DNA of 64,000 nt, from assembly GCF_045037415.1 (NCBI RefSeq), contig NZ_CP173438.1; one strand, written 5' to 3'. The notes beneath the pieces are model-generated. The model saw only the letters and a program-made list of their open reading frames with translations. It ran no database searches and was not told where the DNA came from. This document shows positions 1-46,048 of this stretch, one piece after another. Position 1 is the stretch's first letter; each line of letters starts with the position of its first letter. A program made the position numbers and the translations under genes. The stretch is from Escherichia coli (GTDB lineage Bacteria; Pseudomonadota; Gammaproteobacteria; Enterobacterales; Enterobacteriaceae).

Positions 1-1133
1 ACGATGAACGTGAACAGACTCTGAACCAGATGCTGGTTGAGATGGATGGTTTTGAAGGTAACGAAGGTATCATCGTTATCGCTGCGACTAACCGTCCGGA
101 CGTTCTCGACCCAGCCCTGCTGCGTCCTGGCCGTTTCGACCGTCAGGTTGTGGTTGGCTTGCCAGATGTTCGCGGTCGTGAGCAGATCCTGAAAGTTCAC
201 ATGCGTCGCGTACCATTGGCACCCGATATCGACGCGGCAATCATTGCCCGTGGTACTCCTGGTTTCTCCGGTGCTGACCTGGCGAACCTGGTGAACGAAG
301 CGGCACTGTTCGCTGCTCGTGGCAACAAACGCGTTGTTTCGATGGTTGAGTTCGAGAAAGCGAAAGACAAAATCATGATGGGTGCGGAACGTCGCTCCAT
401 GGTGATGACGGAAGCGCAGAAAGAATCGACGGCTTACCACGAGGCGGGTCATGCGATTATCGGTCGCCTGGTGCCGGAACACGATCCGGTGCACAAAGTG
501 ACGATTATCCCACGCGGTCGTGCGCTGGGTGTGACTTTCTTCTTGCCTGAGGGCGACGCAATCAGCGCCAGCCGTCAGAAACTGGAAAGTCAGATCTCCA
601 CGCTGTACGGTGGTCGTCTGGCGGAAGAGATCATCTACGGACCGGAACATGTTTCTACCGGGGCGTCCAACGATATTAAAGTTGCGACCAACCTGGCACG
701 TAACATGGTGACCCAGTGGGGCTTCTCTGAGAAATTGGGTCCACTGCTGTACGCGGAAGAAGAAGGTGAAGTGTTCCTCGGCCGTAGCGTAGCGAAAGCG
801 AAACATATGTCCGATGAAACTGCACGTATCATCGACCAGGAAGTGAAAGCACTGATTGAGCGTAACTATAATCGTGCGCGTCAGCTTCTGACCGACAATA
901 TGGATATTCTGCATGCGATGAAAGATGCTCTCATGAAATATGAGACTATCGACGCACCGCAGATTGATGACCTGATGGCACGTCGCGATGTACGTCCGCC
1001 AGCGGGCTGGGAAGAACCAGGCGCTTCTAACAATTCTGGCGACAATGGTAGTCCAAAGGCTCCTCGTCCGGTTGATGAACCGCGTACGCCGAACCCGGGT
1101 AACACCATGTCAGAGCAGTTAGGCGACAAGTAA
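1..1133 (+). CDS. ftsH: ATP-dependent zinc metalloprotease FtsH, C-terminal part (5' end lies outside window; reading frame enters at nt 3)
   Basis: ORF 30..1133 translation continues in frame to window edge; sequence [47 protein letters not shown] and HEAGHA zinc-binding motif typical of FtsH; ends ...SEQLGDK. Confidence 0.95.
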
Positions 1134-1164
1134 GTTCCCGTATCAGATGACTGTATTTGTACCG

Positions 1165-1196
1165 AAAACCCCGGGGCGTGCTCCGGGGTTTTTTCT
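1165..1196 (+). terminator. Rho-independent terminator after ftsH (GC stem CCCCGG...CCGGGG followed by T-run)
   Basis: hairpin plus TTTTTT directly downstream of ftsH stop. Confidence 0.6.
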
Positions 1197-1222
1197 TATC
1201 AATTCATACCAGGGATAACATC

Positions 1223-2071
1223 ATGAAACTCTTTGCCCAGGGTACTTCACTGGACCTTAGCCATCCTCACGTAATGGGGATCCTCAACGTCACGCCTGAT
1301 TCCTTTTCGGATGGTGGCACGCATAACTCGCTGTTAGATGCGGTGAAACATGCGAATCTGATGATCAACGCTGGCGCGACGATCATTGACGTTGGTGGCG
1401 AGTCCACGCGCCCAGGGGCGGCGGAAGTTTGCGTTGAAGAAGAGTTGCAACGTGTTATTCCTGTGGTTGAGGCAATTGCTCAACGCTTCGAAGTCTGGAT
1501 CTCGGTAGATACATCCAAACCAGAAGTCATCCGTGAGTCAGCGAAAGTTGGCGCTCACATTATTAACGATATCCGCTCCCTTTCCGAACCTGGTGCTCTG
1601 GAGGCGGCTGCAGAAACCGGTTTACCGGTTTGTCTGATGCATATGCAGGGAAATCCAAAAACCATGCAGGAAGCGCCGAAGTATGACGATGTCTTTGCAG
1701 AAGTGAATCGCTACTTTATTGAGCAAATAGCACGTTGCGAGCAGGCGGGTATCGCAAAAGAGAAATTGTTGCTCGACCCCGGATTCGGTTTCGGTAAAAA
1801 TCTCTCCCATAACTATTCATTACTGGCGCGCCTGGCTGAATTTCACCATTTCAACCTGCCGCTGTTGGTGGGTATGTCACGAAAATCGATGATTGGGCAA
1901 TTGCTGAACGTGGGGCCGTCCGAGCGCCTGAGCGGTAGTCTGGCCTGTGCGGTCATTGCCGCAATGCAAGGCGCGCACATCATTCGTGTTCATGACGTCA
2001 AAGAAACCGTAGAAGCGATGCGGGTGGTGGAAGCCACTCTGTCTGCAAAGGAAAACAAACGCTATGAGTAA
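1223..2071 (+). CDS. folP: dihydropteroate synthase
   Basis: ORF 1157..2071; first ATG at 1223 gives [32 protein letters not shown], 282 aa, pterin-binding family. Confidence 0.93.
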
Positions 2072-3401
2072 TCGTAAATATTTCGGTACCGATGGGATTC
2101 GTGGTCGTGTAGGGGATGCGCCGATCACACCTGATTTTGTGCTTAAGCTGGGTTGGGCCGCGGGTAAAGTGCTGGCGCGCCACGGCTCTCGTAAGATTAT
2201 TATTGGTAAAGACACGCGTATTTCTGGCTATATGCTGGAGTCAGCACTGGAAGCGGGTCTTGCGGCTGCCGGTCTTTCCGCGCTCTTCACTGGCCCGATG
2301 CCAACACCGGCCGTGGCTTATCTGACGCGTACCTTCCGCGCAGAGGCTGGAATTGTAATTTCTGCATCGCATAACCCATTCTACGATAACGGCATTAAAT
2401 TCTTTTCTATTGACGGTACTAAGCTGCCGGATGCAGTTGAAGAAGCCATCGAAGCGGAAATGGAAAAAGAGATCAGCTGTGTTGATTCGGCAGAACTGGG
2501 TAAAGCCAGCCGTATCGTTGATGCCGCGGGTCGTTATATCGAGTTTTGCAAAGCCACGTTCCCGAACGAACTTAGCCTCAGTGAACTGAAGATTGTGGTG
2601 GATTGTGCAAACGGTGCGACTTATCACATCGCACCGAACGTGCTGCGTGAACTGGGGGCGAACGTTATCGCTATCGGTTGTGAGCCGAACGGTGTAAATA
2701 TCAATGCCGAAGTGGGGGCTACCGACGTTCGCGCGCTCCAGGCTCGTGTGCTGGCTGAAAAAGCGGATCTCGGTATTGCCTTCGACGGCGACGGCGATCG
2801 CGTGATTATGGTTGACCATGAAGGCAATAAAGTCGATGGCGATCAGATCATGTATATCATCGCGCGTGAAGGTCTTCGTCAGGGCCAGCTGCGTGGTGGT
2901 GCTGTGGGTACATTGATGAGCAACATGGGGCTTGAACTGGCGCTGAAACAGTTAGGTATTCCATTTGCGCGCGCGAAAGTGGGTGACCGCTACGTACTGG
3001 AAAAAATGCAGGAGAAAGGCTGGCGTATCGGTGCAGAGAACTCCGGTCATGTGATCCTGCTGGATAAAACCACTACCGGTGACGGCATTGTTGCTGGCTT
3101 GCAGGTGCTGGCGGCGATGGCGCGTAACCATATGAGCCTGCACGACCTTTGCAGCGGCATGAAAATGTTCCCGCAGATTCTGGTTAATGTGCGTTACACC
3201 GCAGGTAGCGGCGATCCGTTGGAGCATGAATCAGTCAAAGCTGTGACCGCAGAAGTTGAAGCGGCGCTGGGTAGCCGTGGACGTGTGCTGTTGCGTAAAT
3301 CCGGCACCGAACCGTTAATTCGCGTGATGGTGGAAGGCGAAGACGAAGCGCAGGTGACTGAATTTGCACACCGCATCGCCGATGCAGTAAAAGCCGTTTA
3401 A
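2064..3401 (+). CDS. glmM: phosphoglucosamine mutase
   Basis: 445 aa [17 protein letters not shown]..., phosphohexomutase active-site SASHNP motif; overlaps folP stop by 8 nt. Confidence 0.95.
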
Positions 3402-3420
3402 AACGATAAATGGCTGGCTA

Positions 3421-3448
3421 AAAAGGCGGCGATTGTCGCCTTTTTTCT
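3421..3448 (+). terminator. Rho-independent terminator after glmM
   Basis: AAAAGGCGGCGATTGTCGCCTTTTTT hairpin with flanking A and T runs. Confidence 0.6.
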
Positions 3449-3628
3449 CAGCGAACACATCGGTTTTGCTGTTTTTTTCCGCAGTTGATACAATGCAATA
3501 AAATTGCCCTTGCGAAGGTCATTCGCTTTGGTTAGTATTCACACCCGCTTCAGTGGGAAAGGTTAAATATTCCCGCTTTATTGGTTGAAGCATTGGTACG
3601 CGGCAACTCCGCAAGGAACAGGTTGATT

Positions 3629-3961
3629 ATGTACGAAGCTCTTTTAGTAGTTTTCCTTATTGTGGCAATTGGCCTTGTTGGTCTGATCATGCTGCAGCAA
3701 GGTAAAGGCGCTGATATGGGAGCCTCCTTCGGAGCAGGCGCTTCCGCTACGCTGTTTGGTTCAAGTGGTTCTGGTAACTTCATGACTCGCATGACGGCGC
3801 TGCTGGCAACGTTATTCTTCATCATCAGTCTGGTGCTGGGTAACATCAATAGCAACAAAACCAATAAAGGTAGCGAATGGGAAAACCTGAGTGCGCCGGC
3901 GAAAACCGAACAAACTCAGCCAGCTGCTCCGGCTAAGCCGACCAGCGATATCCCGAACTAA
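3629..3961 (+). CDS. secG: protein-export membrane protein SecG
   Basis: ORF 3581..3961; ATG at 3629 gives MYEALLVVFLIVAIGLVGLIMLQQGKGADMGASFGAG..., 110 aa. Confidence 0.93.
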   Translation: MYEALLVVFLIVAIGLVGLIMLQQGKGADMGASFGAGASATLFGSSGSGNFMTRMTALLATLFFIISLVLGNINSNKTNKGSEWENLSAPAKTEQTQPAAPAKPTSDIPN

Positions 3962-3975
3962 AAAGTAGTATCCGT

Positions 3976-4062
3976 GCCGAGGTGGTGGAATTGGTAGACA
4001 CGCTACCTTGAGGTGGTAGTGCCCAATAGGGCTTACGGGTTCAAGTCCCGTCCTCGGTACCA
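3976..4062 (+). tRNA. leuU: tRNA-Leu (GAG anticodon), 87 nt with encoded CCA
   Basis: GCCGAGGTGGTGGAATTGGTAGACACGCTACCTTGAGGTGGTAG...GGTTCAAGTCCCGTCCTCGGTACCA; long variable arm typical of class II tRNA-Leu; immediately 3' of secG. Confidence 0.93.
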
Positions 4063-4071
4063 AATTCCAGA

Positions 4072-4100
4072 AAGACGCTGAAAAGCGTCTTTTTTCGTTT
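4072..4100 (+). terminator. Rho-independent terminator after leuU
   Basis: AGACGCTGAAAAGCGTCT hairpin followed by TTTTTTCGTTTT. Confidence 0.7.
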
Positions 4101-4518
4101 TGGTCCTGGTCTGAGGAATGGTTGTCAGGTATCTGTATCTCGTCCAGTTGTTTTACTCGTAGCTGGTACCTTGAAACGATGGTGCCGGTATGCCTTAGTT
4201 ATAAGCTTTTCCCTTCTGCTGACATAATTGGCACTTTATTGTGTCAACTCCATTTCCGGTACGAATACGGATATGTTTACTTCTCGATAAACCATCCTGC
4301 CCCTGTCAGTATAACTACTGATGGCTACGTTCTGCGTAATGTTTAGAGACGCATTGATAATGTTATTTAATTACTGAGAACGCAATGGCCGCATCATTTA
4401 AAAAGAAAAAATCTAGCAGTGTTTCGGTCTGATATGGATTAGAGTTGAAAAACATGTCTGATATAAAATTGAACATTGTTGATAATTGTTTATATTGGTT
4501 GTGAACTTGGATTTCTGG

Positions 4519-6144
4519 ATGACAGTATTCAACAAATTTGTTAAAAGTTTTAAATCTCATTGGTTGTTGTATCTTTGTGTTATTATTTTTGGTATTACGA
4601 ACTTAGTCGCTTCTTCCGGAGCGCATATGGTTCAGCGATTGCTGTTCTTCGTTCTGACCATCCTGGTTGTTAAACGTATACCATCCCTTCCGCTTCGCCT
4701 GCTTATTGCCGCACCATTTGTGTTACTGACTGCGGCAGATATGAGTATTAGCCTCTATTCATGGTGTATCTTTGGTACAACTTTCAATGATGGATTTGCG
4801 ATTAGTGTGCTGCAGAGTGATCCGGATGAAGTTGTCAAAATGCTGGGAATGTATATCCCTTATCTATGTGCTTTTGCCTTTTTATCCCTTCTTTTTTTGG
4901 CAGTAATAATAAAATATGATGTTTCCTTGCCGACAAAAAAAGTGACAGGAATATTATTGCTGATTGTCATTTCGGGCAGTTTATTTTCCGCTTGTCAATT
5001 TGCTTATAAAGATGCAAAAAATAAAGAGGCGTTCAGTCCATATATACTAGCGTCGCGATTTGCTACCTATACGCCGTTTTTCAATCTCAATTATTTTGCT
5101 TTAGCAGCGAAAGAGCATCAAAGATTACTCTCAATTGCAAACACGGTGCCGTATTTTCAATTATCAGTCAGGGATACAGGTATTGATACCTACGTGTTGA
5201 TTGTGGGGGAGTCTGTACGTGTCGACAATATGTCTTTGTATGGATATACACACTCTACGACACCGCAAGTCGAAGCACAAAGAAAGCAGATCAAACTGTT
5301 TAATCAAGCAATAAGCGGTGCACCTTACACTGCGCTGTCGGTTCCCCTTTCTTTAACTGCTGATTCTGTTTTGAGTCATGACATTCATAATTATCCGGAC
5401 AACATTATTAATATGGCTAATCAAGCAGGATTTCAGACTTTCTGGCTAAGCTCGCAATCCGCTTTTCGGCAGAATGGTACAGCAGTTACCAGTATCGCCA
5501 TGCGCGCCATGGAAACAGTCTATGTCAGAGGATTTGATGAATTGTTGTTGCCGCATTTATCGCAAGCGTTACAGCAAAAGACGCAGCAAAAGAAACTGAT
5601 TGTTCTTCATTTAAATGGAAGCCATGAACCGGCTTGTAGCGCCTATCCGCAATCCAGCGCTGTGTTTCAACCGCAGGACGATCAGGATGCCTGCTATGAC
5701 AACTCCATTCATTACACAGATAGTTTGCTAGGTCAGGTTTTTGAATTATTAAAAGATCGCCGCGCCTCGGTCATGTATTTTGCCGACCACGGCCTGGAAC
5801 GCGACCCTACGAAGAAGAACGTCTATTTTCATGGAGGCAGGGAGGCTAGCCAGCAGGCATATCATGTCCCTATGTTTATCTGGTATAGCCCCGTTCTTGG
5901 GGATGGCGTGGATCGCACAACGGAAAACAACATCTTTTCGACAGCTTACAATAATTACATTATTAATGCGTGGATGGGGGTAACAAAGCCGGAACAGCCG
6001 CAAACGCTTGAGGAAGTGATTGCACACTATAAAGGAGACTCGCGGGTTGTGGATGCAAACCATGATGTTTTCGATTATGTGATGCTCAGAAAGGAGTTTA
6101 CAGAGGATAATCAAGGTAACCCCACCCCTGAAGGGCAGGGTTGA
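4519..6144 (+). CDS. yhbX: putative phosphoethanolamine transferase / sulfatase-domain inner membrane protein YhbX (EptA/OpgE-like)
   Basis: ORF 4486..6144 (TTG); first ATG at 4519 gives 541 aa MTVFNKFVKSFKSHWLLYL...; N-terminal hydrophobic segments then soluble sulfatase-like domain; markedly AT-rich. Confidence 0.85.
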   Translation: MTVFNKFVKSFKSHWLLYLCVIIFGITNLVASSGAHMVQRLLFFVLTILVVKRIPSLPLRLLIAAPFVLLTAADMSISLYSWCIFGTTFNDGFAISVLQSDPDEVVKMLGMYIPYLCAFAFLSLLFLAVIIKYDVSLPTKKVTGILLLIVISGSLFSACQFAYKDAKNKEAFSPYILASRFATYTPFFNLNYFALAAKEHQRLLSIANTVPYFQLSVRDTGIDTYVLIVGESVRVDNMSLYGYTHSTTPQVEAQRKQIKLFNQAISGAPYTALSVPLSLTADSVLSHDIHNYPDNIINMANQAGFQTFWLSSQSAFRQNGTAVTSIAMRAMETVYVRGFDELLLPHLSQALQQKTQQKKLIVLHLNGSHEPACSAYPQSSAVFQPQDDQDACYDNSIHYTDSLLGQVFELLKDRRASVMYFADHGLERDPTKKNVYFHGGREASQQAYHVPMFIWYSPVLGDGVDRTTENNIFSTAYNNYIINAWMGVTKPEQPQTLEEVIAHYKGDSRVVDANHDVFDYVMLRKEFTEDNQGNPTPEGQG

Positions 6145-6151
6145 TGTCGAA

Positions 6152-7510
<1,359 letters not shown>

Positions 7511-7535
7511 TTAATTAACTGATGATGAGCCTGGA

Positions 7536-7578
7536 TTTCTGCTCTCACTGAATTTTTATGCAAAATAAATGAGTTTTC
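7536..7578 (-). promoter_or_regulatory. candidate tandem ARG boxes (ArgR operator) in argG promoter region
   Basis: CTGAATTTTTATGCAAAA and ATAAATGAGTTTTCATTT resemble the ARG box consensus TNTGAATWWWWATTCANW; located just upstream of argG start on minus strand. Confidence 0.45.
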
Positions 7579-7720
7579 ATTTAATCATCTTTTATCGGAG
7601 ACAGGAAGAGTTTAGTGTGTTTTTTGTAAAATAATGCGCTTAAGGGAAAGCAGGAGAAGGTAAAAGTATTCAACAAATGAAAGTGAACTGGATATTCATT
7701 CACGTGATTAGCAATAAACG

Positions 7721-7750
7721 TTGACAAAATGTGGCGTGGATCACTATAAT
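7721..7750 (+). promoter_or_regulatory. candidate sigma70 promoter upstream of metY (TTGACA -35, 18-nt spacer, TATAAT -10)
   Basis: perfect hexamers TTGACA at 7721-7726 and TATAAT at 7745-7750. Confidence 0.5.
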
Positions 7751-7798
7751 GCCCGCAGATTTTACGTCCCGTCTCGGTACACCAAATCCCAGCAGTAT

Positions 7799-7828
7799 TT
7801 GCATTTTTTACCCAAAACGAGTAGAATT
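7799..7828 (+). promoter_or_regulatory. candidate metY-proximal promoter (TTGCAT -35, TAGAAT -10), start site predicted a few nt upstream of the tRNA
   Basis: -10 TAGAAT at 7823-7828 sits about 15 nt upstream of mature tRNA 5' end. Confidence 0.5.
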
Positions 7829-7842
7829 TGCCACGTTTCAGG

Positions 7843-7919
<77 letters not shown>

Positions 7920-8042
7920 CTTTCCCTTAGAGTCCTTTTTCAAATATACTGTGAAGACTTCGGCCTTCGTAGTGGGATTTGAAAAAATCCTTCTGGAAAG
8001 TGCTCCAGACCGCAGTTGCGGTTATAGGGTTCAGTTATATAA

Positions 8043-8066
8043 AGCCCCGATTTATCGGGGTTTTTT
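8043..8066 (+). terminator. Rho-independent terminator/attenuator between metY and rimP
   Basis: AGCCCCGATTTATCGGGGTTTTTT; a second hairpin+T-run (GGGCTTTAGGCCCTTTTTTT) at about 8089-8108. Confidence 0.55.
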
Positions 8067-8125
8067 GTTATCTGACTACAGAATAACTGGGCTTTAGGCC
8101 CTTTTTTTATGTCTTGGGGGTGGGC

Positions 8126-8578
8126 TTGTCCACATTAGAGCAAAAATTAACAGAGATGATTACTGCGCCAGTTGAGGCCCTGGGTTTTGAACTGGTTGGC
8201 ATCGAATTTATTCGCGGTCGCACATCCACACTGCGCATCTATATTGATAGTGAAGATGGCATCAATGTTGATGATTGTGCTGATGTGAGCCACCAGGTAA
8301 GTGCTGTGCTGGATGTTGAAGACCCCATCACCGTTGCTTATAACCTGGAAGTCTCCTCACCGGGTCTCGATCGCCCACTGTTCACGGCTGAACACTACGC
8401 CCGTTTTGTCGGAGAAGAGGTGACTCTGGTTCTCCGTATGGCGGTACAAAACCGTCGTAAATGGCAGGGCGTTATCAAAGCGGTAGACGGTGAAATGATC
8501 ACAGTTACCGTCGAAGGTAAAGATGAAGTGTTCGCGCTGAGTAATATCCAGAAGGCGAACCTGGTTCCCCACTTTTAA
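8126..8578 (+). CDS. rimP: ribosome maturation factor RimP
   Basis: ORF 8114..8578; in-frame TTG at 8126 gives 150 aa (M)[27 protein letters not shown]...; start codon choice follows my recollection of the K-12 protein. Confidence 0.85.
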
Positions 8579-8605
8579 TAGTCTGGATGAGGTGAAAAGC
8601 CCGCG

Positions 8606-10093
<1,488 letters not shown>

Positions 10094-36099: not shown

Positions 36100-36576
36100 T
36101 TAGTCAGGGATTTGTTCTTTTTGATCGCCAGGAACGTCCTGAATGAAAACATTCACGCCACGTTGTTTAATATAACGTAAGTCCGTGAGATCCTGGTCAT
36201 CGACATAAACTTTACTGCTGATTTGCTTTTTCCCTTCCGAGAAATGCATATTGCCGACGTTGACATCTTTCAGGTCAATACCACCTTCTACCAATTTACG
36301 TACCGTTTGTGGCGTACGGCAAATCAGGAAGATCTTCTGATGTGGTGCAGCTTTGCCGATGACGTTAATGGTTTTTTCGATAGTAAAGAAACGAATGCCA
36401 AAGCCGTAGGTTTCTGCGGTAATACCCATTAATTTCTGTTGAATATCATCGTTAGCGACAACATCATCCACGACTACCAACAGATTCGCACCGATGGTGG
36501 ATGTCCAGGTCACGCCAACCTGACCGTGAACCAGACGGTTATCAATACGGGTTAAGAGAATATTTGGACTGCTCAT
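36100..36576 (-). CDS. agaB: PTS mannose-family IIB component (galactosamine-specific)
   Basis: 158 aa ORF MSSPNILLTRIDNRLVHGQVGVTWTSTIGANLLVVVDD... Confidence 0.9.
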   Translation of the reverse strand: MSSPNILLTRIDNRLVHGQVGVTWTSTIGANLLVVVDDVVANDDIQQKLMGITAETYGFGIRFFTIEKTINVIGKAAPHQKIFLICRTPQTVRKLVEGGIDLKDVNVGNMHFSEGKKQISSKVYVDDQDLTDLRYIKQRGVNVFIQDVPGDQKEQIPD

Positions 36577-45248: not shown

Positions 45249-45713
45249 TCAATGGTTTTCTTCTGTCTCTTGGGTGAGGCTTTCCCAGTCGGCAGGAGGA
45301 TGTCCTCTTTTTAACATTTTACTGAATACGGTATAGGCATCTGTTTTTTTACCGTAGGTGCGCAGCGTGTTTTCATCGTTCATCCATCCCAGAATGATGA
45401 CTTTCTCTTTTTCACTGTAACGAAAGAAGAGACGATAGCGACCAGCACCAAATTTTACCCGTGACCAGTCTTTATTTTTCCCAGAGCCTAACGACTTGCC
45501 ATGACGGAATGCCGGTGATGATGGATTGACCGTGATATGCTCCTCAATCACTTTATGGACCACCGCCAATAACTTTGTGGCAGCTTTTCTCTGATAATTT
45601 TCAGGATCTTTTCCCTTTAATGCCTCGACTTCGGCAACTAAAGCATCGTAGGTTTCCTGAAAACAGGGATGAGCATATAGCGCCCAACCATTAACCCTTT
45701 GTGGAAAATCCAT
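45249..45713 (-). CDS. yhaV: type II toxin YhaV (ribosome-dependent mRNA endoribonuclease)
   Basis: 154 aa ORF MDFPQRVNGWALYAHPCFQETYDALVAEVEALKGKDPENYQRKAATKLLAVVHKVIEEH... Confidence 0.9.
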   Translation of the reverse strand: MDFPQRVNGWALYAHPCFQETYDALVAEVEALKGKDPENYQRKAATKLLAVVHKVIEEHITVNPSSPAFRHGKSLGSGKNKDWSRVKFGAGRYRLFFRYSEKEKVIILGWMNDENTLRTYGKKTDAYTVFSKMLKRGHPPADWESLTQETEENH

Positions 45714-46048
45714 TATTCGTCGTCGCCAATCTCATCGTCAATGTTGACGTCCATGCCAGCGACAAGTTTCTTTCCTTGTTGAATGTCGAATGGACGAGTT
45801 TTTTGCGGATTGTTCTGGATATCTGCATCCAGAAAACGCAAAAATGCATTCATAGTATGATCCTCCTGTTCATCTCCCAGTCGGCACATAAATACTTGCC
45901 CACCAGGCAGAATTTCGTAATGAATGCTGTCCAGGCCTGGCTTCAGTTTTAAGGCCTCACGCACTGGCGCGGGGATAGTTGTTTGTCCGCGTATAGTGAC
46001 CTTTGATTCAGTGGTCAGTACAGCGTTAGAGCGAGCATTAGCGGGCAT
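45713..46048 (-). CDS. prlF: type II antitoxin PrlF (SohA), AbrB/SpoVT-type DNA-binding domain
   Basis: 111 aa ORF MPANARSNAVLTTESKVTIRGQTTIPAPVREALKLKPGLDSIHYEILPGGQVFMC... with acidic C-terminus; 1-nt overlap with yhaV start. Confidence 0.9.
   Translation of the reverse strand: MPANARSNAVLTTESKVTIRGQTTIPAPVREALKLKPGLDSIHYEILPGGQVFMCRLGDEQEDHTMNAFLRFLDADIQNNPQKTRPFDIQQGKKLVAGMDVNIDDEIGDDE

Follow-up and report, generated by a model that had tools for sequence, protein, structure and literature searches.

The stretch of DNA analyzed here (hereafter "the window") comprises 64,000 nucleotides (nt) of an Escherichia coli chromosome (RefSeq assembly GCF_045037415.1, contig NZ_CP173438.1). The gene under study, yhbX, is located between the tRNA-Leu gene leuU and the 3' end of argG, and it encodes a protein of the phosphoethanolamine (pEtN) transferase family. 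On the basis of sequence comparisons, yhbX appears to have been acquired horizontally, to be specific to the E. coli lineage and to have replaced an ancestral gene for a helix-turn-helix (HTH) protein, and its product is predicted to be a catalytically competent pEtN transferase; a probability of roughly 0.7 was assigned to this reading.

A 4.2-kb query taken around the locus matched 5425 of the 5426 complete E. coli genomes and was 100% identical to several of them. In the RefSeq annotation of one such identical genome, the gene order was folP, glmM, secG, tRNA-Leu, yhbX, argG (convergent), tRNA-Met, rimP, nusA. A first-pass annotation of the region had been made from the sequence alone; its gene names and coordinates proved correct when compared to the RefSeq annotation and to the output of ARAGORN. 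The features are as follows (positions are those of the window):

3976-4062, + strand: leuU, tRNA-Leu(GAG) (ARAGORN; Rfam tRNA, 52.8 bits)
4069-4101, + strand: secG-leuU intrinsic terminator (stem at 4069-4094 plus a T-run; terminator scan)
4102-4518, + strand: AT-rich non-coding leader of the yhbX cassette (no Rfam family, no convincing open reading frame)
4519-6144, + strand: yhbX coding sequence, 541 residues, pEtN-transferase-family inner-membrane protein (RefSeq annotation of identical genomes; Pfam, PDB and AlphaFold2 (AF2))
4519-5139, + strand: predicted N-terminal helical membrane domain of YhbX, residues 1 to ca. 207 (AF2 helices; alignments to 5fgn and 9nww)
5188-5916, + strand: predicted periplasmic catalytic domain of YhbX of the alkaline-phosphatase/sulfatase type, residues 224-466 (Pfam)
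6118-6142, - strand (argG sense): hairpin within the last eight yhbX codons, a candidate argG 3'-end or terminator stem-loop that has no U-tract (RNA folding)
6145-6151, no strand: 7-nt spacer (tgtcgaa) between the convergent stop codons (sequence)
6152-7495, - strand: argG, argininosuccinate synthase, 447 residues, C-terminal end ...LENKGQ* (annotation)

The yhbX stop codon (TGA, 6142-6144) and that of argG (6152-6154, TTA on the + strand) were exactly 7 nt apart by direct reading of the sequence, as the first-pass annotation had stated. Between 4063 and 6151, yhbX was the only open reading frame (ORF) longer than 74 residues, and RefSeq annotates nothing else there. An Rfam search of the same interval at a permissive threshold returned no RNA family and no small RNA.

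Occupants of the leuU-argG interval

The yhbX cassette (4104-6150) was detected in 5178 of the 5426 complete E. coli genomes (ca. 95%). A different cassette was found in the same slot in 237 of them (4.4%), featuring a 317-residue HTH gene on the argG strand, and the flanks were present in 5425. At least 80% of the length of yhbX was covered in 5181 genomes; insertions of the insertion sequences IS1 and IS1203 and partial deletions of yhbX were evident in some lineages. About 10 complete genomes matched neither cassette in megablast, and in 25 records the best blastn match to yhbX was only 60-90% identical; these genomes and records may represent a third haplotype, or matches only to the island paralogue described below.

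In an Escherichia marmotae-like contig (89% amino-acid identity to the E. coli protein), Citrobacter koseri (73%) and Salmonella enterica (71%), an orthologue of the HTH gene was found with argG on one side and leuU-secG on the other. The E. marmotae-like contig was ca. 91% identical to E. coli at the nucleotide level, and the named proteins in the 90%-identity cluster of its HTH protein are from Escherichia marmotae. In S. enterica, one member of the HTH cluster occurred on at least 1000 contigs. The leuU sequence was 100% identical across E. coli and the S. enterica and C. koseri loci. Identity of the HTH proteins was 89% between E. coli and the E. marmotae-like contig, 81% between Citrobacter and Salmonella, and 70-74% across these two groups; the divergence of the gene thus appears to follow, roughly, that of its hosts. 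Because the HTH gene is syntenic in the relatives and its divergence tracks the hosts, it is taken to be the ancestral occupant, which yhbX would have displaced in the E. coli lineage. The positions of the HTH gene in the compared loci are as follows:

L002:2224-3177, E. coli MS14386
L098:1904-2857, E. marmotae-like contig
L094:5001-5960, S. enterica
L096:5001-5960, C. koseri

The HTH proteins are 317-319 residues in length, are encoded co-directionally with argG, and begin with a short N-terminal domain of the XRE/MBF1 type. The remaining ca. 270 residues had no match in Pfam, NCBIfam or PADLOC. The family is large (745 matches), and proteins with 52-58% identity were found in Pseudomonas, Serratia, Photorhabdus, Acinetobacter and others.

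The boundaries of the exchange were located by alignment. On the left, the window, K-12 and the HTH haplotype part right after CGTCTTTTTTCGTTTT, at ca. 4101/4102, and the leuU terminator is the last sequence common to both haplotypes. On the right, argG 3' ends were compared across haplotypes and species, and the breakpoint relative to the E. marmotae-like locus was placed 2 nt past the argG stop codon. A breakpoint inside argG, with the last two codons (GQ in the window, VK in the E. coli HTH haplotype) belonging to the cassette, was considered and rejected, as the HTH-bearing E. marmotae-like locus also ends in GQ (its ArgG terminates in ...LENKGQ*, like that of the window). Judging from these sequences, the ...VK* ending arose locally, in the HTH allele of E. 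coli. Small differences were observed near the left side of the locus as well. Three nucleotides (AAG) that K-12 and the HTH haplotype have in the region of the 5' arm of the leuU terminator (4072-4074) are missing from the window. For a query spanning 3400-7600, the alignments to most other E. coli genomes begin only at base 15, which suggests a small indel just after glmM (3400-3414).

The two haplotypes also differed downstream of argG. Within ca. 20-30 nt of the end of argG, the S. enterica locus and both Escherichia loci with the HTH gene (the E. coli haplotype and the E. marmotae-like contig) have a canonical intrinsic terminator (GGCCGC-N4-GCGGCC followed by T6-7); the 86-nt terminator region of the HTH haplotype (L002) folded at -27.9 kcal/mol. 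No GGCCGC-N4-GCGGCC element directly followed argG at the C. koseri locus. Comparison of the argG 3' ends showed the yhbX haplotype to lack the element, and a scan for consensus terminators returned no site at the yhbX-argG junction on either strand.

What lies there instead is the hairpin at 6118-6142, 9 nt downstream of the argG stop codon in the argG sense. It is a GC-rich stem-loop with an 11-bp stem, AACCCUGCCCU-UCA-GGGGUGGGGUU. In the argG sense it folded at -17.1 kcal/mol (z = -2.76; 1 of 200 shuffled sequences was as good). In the yhbX sense the value was -11.9 kcal/mol (z = -0.64), with the G-U pairs turned into C-A mismatches. The same nucleotides encode the YhbX tail NPTPEGQG, which is E. 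coli-specific, being absent from all relatives compared, and which is disordered in the AF2 model (predicted local distance difference test (pLDDT) < 50 for residues 532-541). The hairpin and spacer together (43 nt) were identical in 13 of 13 E. coli loci checked.

Taken together, a cassette of ca. 2.05 kb (ca. 4102-6150), rich in AT, would have replaced the older content of the interval, namely the HTH gene and the canonical intrinsic terminator of argG. The replaced segment would begin directly behind the leuU terminator, and its other end would be 2 nt beyond the argG stop codon. The cassette would then have become nearly fixed in E. coli (ca. 95%), with ca. 4% retaining the HTH allele. As a consequence, argG would now end 7 nt from yhbX, with the hairpin as the only structure downstream of it. 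The first-pass annotation had remarked that the junction leaves no room for separate terminators; that remark stands, and its cause would be the removal of the conserved argG terminator in the replacement. The resulting overlap is already published: argG-yhbX is among the 165 convergent excludons (overlapping transcripts) of MG1655, which were defined from at least 50% of 58 transcriptomes (PMC12288877). Since argG would have lost its canonical terminator in the replacement, its transcript and that of yhbX overlap, which would explain why the pair was listed. The pair resembles other convergent excludons in its closely apposed stop codons (the 7-nt gap measured here) and its place in the MG1655 list. 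It differs from them in that the overlap would have arisen secondarily, when a gene replacement removed the ancestral terminator.

On the other side of yhbX, the leader contained sigma-70-like sites at 4458-4486 and 4469-4496 that match the consensus only (promoter scan, 9 of 12 positions). In K-12, a genomic SELEX (systematic evolution of ligands by exponential enrichment) peak of a minor sigma factor, reported in a section on heat shock, is situated in the yhbX-leuU spacer upstream of yhbX (PMC5493296). Beyond argG, a perfect sigma-70 consensus (TTGACA-18-TATAAT, 12 of 12 positions) was observed at 7721-7750, upstream of the tRNA-Met gene metY (7843-7919), and the rimP leader (Rfam RF01770, 102 bits; 8008-8108) comes after metY.

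Base composition and relatives of yhbX

The GC content of yhbX was 0.427, compared to a mean of 0.521 (standard deviation (sd) 0.035) over 57 long ORFs of the window (z = -2.7). At third codon positions (GC3) the value was 0.419 against a mean of 0.555 (sd 0.062), and the window-referenced codon-usage index was 0.578 against 0.695 (sd 0.059). By all three measures, yhbX ranked second-lowest of the 57 ORFs. The sole ORF with a lower GC content was that at 53934-54872 (0.424); other low-GC ORFs of the window were at 45249-46048 (0.44-0.47) and 36100-36576 (0.436). In 300-bp windows, GC fell to 0.32-0.36 at 4201-4650 and 4801-5100, compared to 0.50-0.56 in glmM and argG. The non-coding segment 4063-4518 had a GC content of 0.386 (0.437 for 4104-4300 and 0.339 for 4301-4518). 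Within the gene, GC3 rose from 5' to 3': 0.350 for codons 1-200, 0.400 for codons 201-370 and 0.517 for codons 371-542. Because this gradient is present at synonymous sites, it does not merely reflect the amino-acid composition of the membrane domain. The K-12 paralogues eptA, eptB, eptC and opgE had GC3 values of 0.56-0.61. The sliding-window GC and GC3 values thus agree with the earlier description of yhbX as more AT-rich than its neighbors, above all in its 5' third and upstream region, and codon usage, like GC, was atypical of the flanks and not uniform with them.

Relatives of YhbX were sought in an exhaustive, profile-free protein search of 1.84 billion cluster representatives and in a scan of species-representative genomes. 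After the cluster of YhbX itself, the next 50%-identity cluster was only 46-48% identical; 118 clusters had E-values below 1e-30. The named relatives were from Buttiauxella, Pectobacterium, Mixta, Microvirgula and Proteus. The genome scan returned homologues in Leminorella grimontii (66%), a metagenome-assembled genome (MAG) of the Enterobacteriaceae (64%) and Hafnia paralvei (48%), and further ones in Buttiauxella, Kluyvera, some Enterobacter and Citrobacter species, Proteus, Photorhabdus and others. Across the 80 loci that came from other species, secG, leuU or argG was never found within 6 kb of the homologue.

The contexts of the closest relatives were accessory in character. The Leminorella copy adjoins dndB and dndC. 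The MAG copy (L004:5908-7581) is followed directly by a P4-type integrase gene (7678-8940) and tRNA-Phe (9138-9213), and the island of which it is part shared 95.7% identity with an island of a urinary E. coli isolate (L107, E. coli CNR20180903). This yhbX-like island paralogue was present in 634 of the 5426 complete E. coli genomes, in 455 of them with near-full coverage, and it was often truncated. The paralogue resembles YhbX in length and catalytic motifs and, with 64% amino-acid identity, is one of its two closest relatives. It differs in being carried with an HTH regulator, two unknown proteins, a YkgJ-family protein and the integrase (five other genes plus the integrase were counted on the island in all), whereas yhbX is solitary and has no integrase. 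It also differs in its position, which is beside tRNA-Phe in the MAG and beside glnH-dps in one E. coli genome. The YhbX clade, as this paralogue illustrates, moves on mobile islands.

Several apparent relatives were discarded. Fragments with 68-90% identity to YhbX, which might have been orthologues from other Escherichia species, derived from noisy or chimeric contigs and from one bisulfite-converted E. coli assembly. The latter (L101, Logan contig SRR3359616) was colinear with positions 1-7872 of the window at 82% identity, with four gaps, and 1285 of its 1407 mismatches were C-to-T changes; it is a bisulfite-converted E. coli library that was assembled as native. It also seeded spurious "divergent" clusters (e.g. 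P0157, 73% identical to YhbX). A match at 32% in "E. coli E69" (L054) was neither opgE nor yhbX; it is another paralogue, located beside an MprF-like gene. A SecG-based contig look-up aimed at outgroup loci returned only E. coli loci carrying yhbX.

The YhbX protein

The Pfam family Sulfatase (PF00884) matched residues 224-466 of YhbX (E = 3.8e-55); no Pfam family matched the N-terminal domain. In a sequence search of the PDB, the hits were EcEptC (5zzu, periplasmic domain, E = 4e-23), full-length NmEptA (ca. 5e-23) and MCR-1 (1e-12), and phmmer aligned YhbX 41-460 to NmEptA 56-489. YhbX residues E231, T271, H369, D423, H424 and H438 align with E240, T280, H383, D452, H453 and H465 of NmEptA. 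These six (the Thr nucleophile, Zn ligands and two extra His residues) were invariant in 10 family members, down to 31% identity; the T271 codon is ACT at 5329-5331.

The AF2 model (pLDDT 82, predicted template-modeling score 0.77) featured a multi-helix N-terminal domain, with helices from residues 2-13 to 189-207, followed by an alpha/beta domain. Using Foldseek, ca. 550 columns of the model were aligned to 5fgn (NmEptA) and 9nww (MCR-1). The best match was EcEptC (6a82; E = 1.7e-20, target-normalized TM-score 0.74-0.76), and the top 24 PDB matches were all pEtN transferases, except for two PbgA/YejM entries. YhbX possesses a complete catalytic site and, as modeled, an EptA/MCR-like family fold. 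By homology, it would be an inner-membrane enzyme in which a helical N-terminal membrane domain is joined to a periplasmic, Zn-dependent domain of the alkaline-phosphatase type. It would act by a ping-pong mechanism, with pEtN passing from phosphatidylethanolamine onto Thr271 and then to an acceptor exposed to the periplasm.

Placement within the family was less specific. The scores of YhbX were far below every curated NCBIfam cut-off (CptA, 141 vs. 404 bits; EptA, 117 vs. 561 and 87 vs. 660; EptB, 105 vs. 493; MCR-1, 35 vs. 1100), and it therefore belongs to the family but to no characterized subfamily. Among the K-12 paralogues, the order of similarity was OpgE (30%, 124 bits), EptC (110 bits), EptB (99 bits) and EptA (81 bits). 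In a neighbor-joining tree, the YhbX clade was located beside OpgE but separate from it, and it included the Leminorella, Hafnia, Buttiauxella and Proteus proteins.

OpgE (YbiP), the pEtN transferase of periplasmic glucans, shares the two-domain architecture of the family and is the nearest K-12 paralogue by BLASTP (residues 198-454); moreover, some YhbX relatives are called "glucan phosphoethanolaminetransferase" by JGI. It is not an orthologue: the identity was 30% over 268 residues, in the catalytic domain only, the GC3 of opgE was 0.564 compared to 0.419 for yhbX, and opgE occupies the ompX-opgE locus. EptC (CptA), which modifies heptose phosphate in the lipopolysaccharide (LPS) core, is the best match among solved structures and second-best among NCBIfam families, yet YhbX is below the CptA cut-off and only 25% identical. 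The lipid A pEtN transferases EptA and MCR-1 share the full-length architecture, the catalytic Glu/Thr/Asp/His residues and the two extra His residues. They differ in identity (18-27%), in scores far below the cut-offs and in an N-terminal domain that Pfam does not detect in YhbX; nothing points to polymyxin resistance.

Because the YhbX clade is sister to OpgE, and EptC is closer to it than EptA and EptB are, the acceptor might be a glycan, be it periplasmic glucan, the LPS core or some other glycan of the envelope, in preference to the phosphates of lipid A. This is a tentative guess, held at somewhat less than even odds. A bolder proposal is that YhbX, the Leminorella, Hafnia, Buttiauxella and Proteus (PMI3040-like) proteins and the E. 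coli island paralogue form a distinct mobile or accessory pEtN-transferase clade, sister to OpgE. The acceptor would then differ from the four already known (lipid A, 3-deoxy-D-manno-octulosonic acid (Kdo), heptose phosphate and periplasmic glucan), with enterobacterial common antigen, O-antigen, capsule or a periplasmic protein among the candidates, and expression of yhbX in E. coli would be tied antagonistically to arginine biosynthesis through the lost terminator and the transcript overlap. As a whole, this proposal is unlikely.

The first-pass annotation had called the substrate of YhbX undefined, and this agrees with the literature: a search for yhbX and its locus tag b3173 returned no functional study. 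The Keio delta-yhbX strain was recovered in a reporter screen; of the six hits of that screen, five were set aside, on the grounds of envelope or permeability effects or because the native rpoN locus had been restored, with the case of yhbX unspecified (PMC4551910). It also appeared in a screen for antidepressant resistance (PMC9765716). These screens offer weak hints of an envelope role.

Weighing of the accounts and significance

The position of yhbX 3' of a tRNA gene had been read as that of a classic integration site. The adjacency was confirmed (yhbX begins 457 nt downstream of leuU), but signs of integration were not. In an account built on such a site, an integrase-bearing element would have brought in yhbX as cargo, inserting site-specifically at the leuU 3' end, and its integrase would later have been lost. 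Atypical composition and a presence/absence polymorphism (5178 genomes with yhbX vs. 237 with the HTH gene), which are common to tRNA-associated islands, were both observed, and the 64%-identical homologue directly beside a P4-type integrase and tRNA-Phe, on an island also found in E. coli, lends this account some appeal. Against it, the ORF list for 4063-6151 contained no integrase gene or fragment beside leuU, and no direct repeat of the tRNA 3' end (attL/attR) was found to flank the insert. A leuU-like 20-nt match at 4167-4186 was considered as a tRNA remnant and rejected, as 212 of 500 shuffled sequences scored as well in local alignment. In addition, the left boundary lies past the leuU terminator, 39 nt beyond the tRNA, and the removal of a resident gene with an end point 2 nt from the argG stop codon is unlike the product of attB/attP recombination. 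This account was judged quite improbable, and the evidence supports the replacement of a resident gene, not insertion into an empty tRNA-flanking site. Because there is neither an integrase nor an att repeat, the replacement is proposed to have begun, in all likelihood, with an illegitimate event and to have spread by homologous recombination in the conserved flanks. As a separate observation, another pEtN-transferase gene adjoins a tRNA gene in K-12: proK (tRNA-Pro; L104:1117-1193) is 91 nt from the 3' end of eptB (L104:1285-2976).

A gene without enzymatic role, silenced, dispensable and drifting toward a pseudogene, would fit other observations. The ratio of nonsynonymous to synonymous substitution rates (dN/dS) of yhbX was 0.06-0.28 (mostly 0.12-0.28), about ten-fold higher than the 0.00-0.02 obtained for argG and glmM in the informative comparisons. 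Some lineages have insertions of IS1 or IS1203 or partial deletions in yhbX, 237 genomes are without it, no clear phenotype has been published, and the argG-yhbX junction has served as a neutral insertion site for synthetic operons bracketed by added terminators (PMC12421378). The ORF was nonetheless intact in 11 of 11 comparison E. coli genomes, most of the gene was covered in nearly all complete genomes, dN/dS was well below 1, and the six catalytic residues were invariant across the family; recovery of the mutant in the two envelope- or drug-related screens adds weakly to this. The values indicate that yhbX is under purifying, albeit relaxed, selection, and the relic account is very improbable. 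Least credible is the account in which yhbX is ancestral in enterics and gave way to the HTH gene in a small share of E. coli and in Salmonella, Citrobacter and E. marmotae, with its low GC content arising from membrane composition or mutation bias. The presence of yhbX in 95% of E. coli, the incompleteness of the species-genome scan and the AT-richness of the HTH gene, which could be foreign too, speak for it. It would require that the same HTH gene replaced yhbX independently, with identical boundaries, in at least three lineages. The identities of the HTH proteins track the hosts (89% for the E. marmotae-like contig, 71-73% for Salmonella and Citrobacter, 81% between those two), the canonical argG terminator is common to the Salmonella and Escherichia HTH haplotypes, and no syntenic yhbX was found in another genus among the 80 loci retrieved. 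Moreover, the third codon positions of yhbX are also low in GC, and its paralogues are not rich in AT.

Replacement of the HTH gene by a foreign yhbX is therefore preferred, although a number of points weigh against this reading. The HTH gene was even more AT-rich than yhbX (GC3 of 0.30-0.36 in four hosts), so low GC alone is poor evidence of recent transfer at leuU-argG. Being AT-rich and fast-evolving, the HTH gene could also be an accessory gene that repeatedly landed at this site, which makes "ancestral" uncertain. The timing of the acquisition rests on one E. marmotae-like contig. The scan of species representatives was incomplete: the E. coli type strain ATCC 11775 was not among its matches, although it carries yhbX at the locus (NZ_CP033092.2, 563687-565312; L099:3688-5313) with both search motifs intact. 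The scan therefore gives no proof of absence from E. albertii, E. fergusonii, E. ruysiae or other Escherichia. Between this strain and K-12, the synonymous divergence (dS) of yhbX (4519-6144) was 0.058, less than half that of argG (6152-7495; 0.129) and glmM (2064-3401; 0.157), which later recombinational spread of the cassette could explain. YhbX has no established function (PMC4013655), and the guess at its acceptor rests on 30% identity and a neighbor-joining tree that was not bootstrapped. Finally, the hairpin lacks the U-tract of a Rho-independent terminator (its tail is ACCUUGAUUAUCC) and is not called by the terminator scan, and the invariance of its 43 nt carries little weight, as ca. 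one substitution would be expected at ca. 2% divergence.

The first-pass annotation had suggested an old horizontally acquired gene. A foreign and fairly old origin is supported by the atypical composition, the HTH gene at the same position in 4.4% of E. coli genomes and in syntenic order in the relatives, the lack of synteny in all 80 homologous loci, and the accessory contexts of the closest homologues; yhbX is thus neither universal in E. coli nor syntenic in the loci of other species. The suggestion is refined here to the replacement of an ancestral gene together with the argG terminator.

The gene, its family and the overlap of the argG and yhbX transcripts were already known. What the analysis adds is that yhbX would be outside the ancestral enteric backbone, having displaced a conserved HTH gene, and that the closest relatives found reside in accessory DNA, one on an integrase/tRNA-Phe island and the other in a dnd neighborhood. 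The acquisition of yhbX would also have reorganized the 3' end of argG, a housekeeping gene. The two natural haplotypes provide a ready-made comparison for the effects of the exchange on argG expression. The grouping of YhbX with OpgE and EptC, not with the lipid A enzymes, may narrow the search for its substrate. As yhbX is the last of the five E. coli K-12 pEtN-transferase paralogues without an assigned substrate, leads on its origin or acceptor would be of some value for envelope biology.

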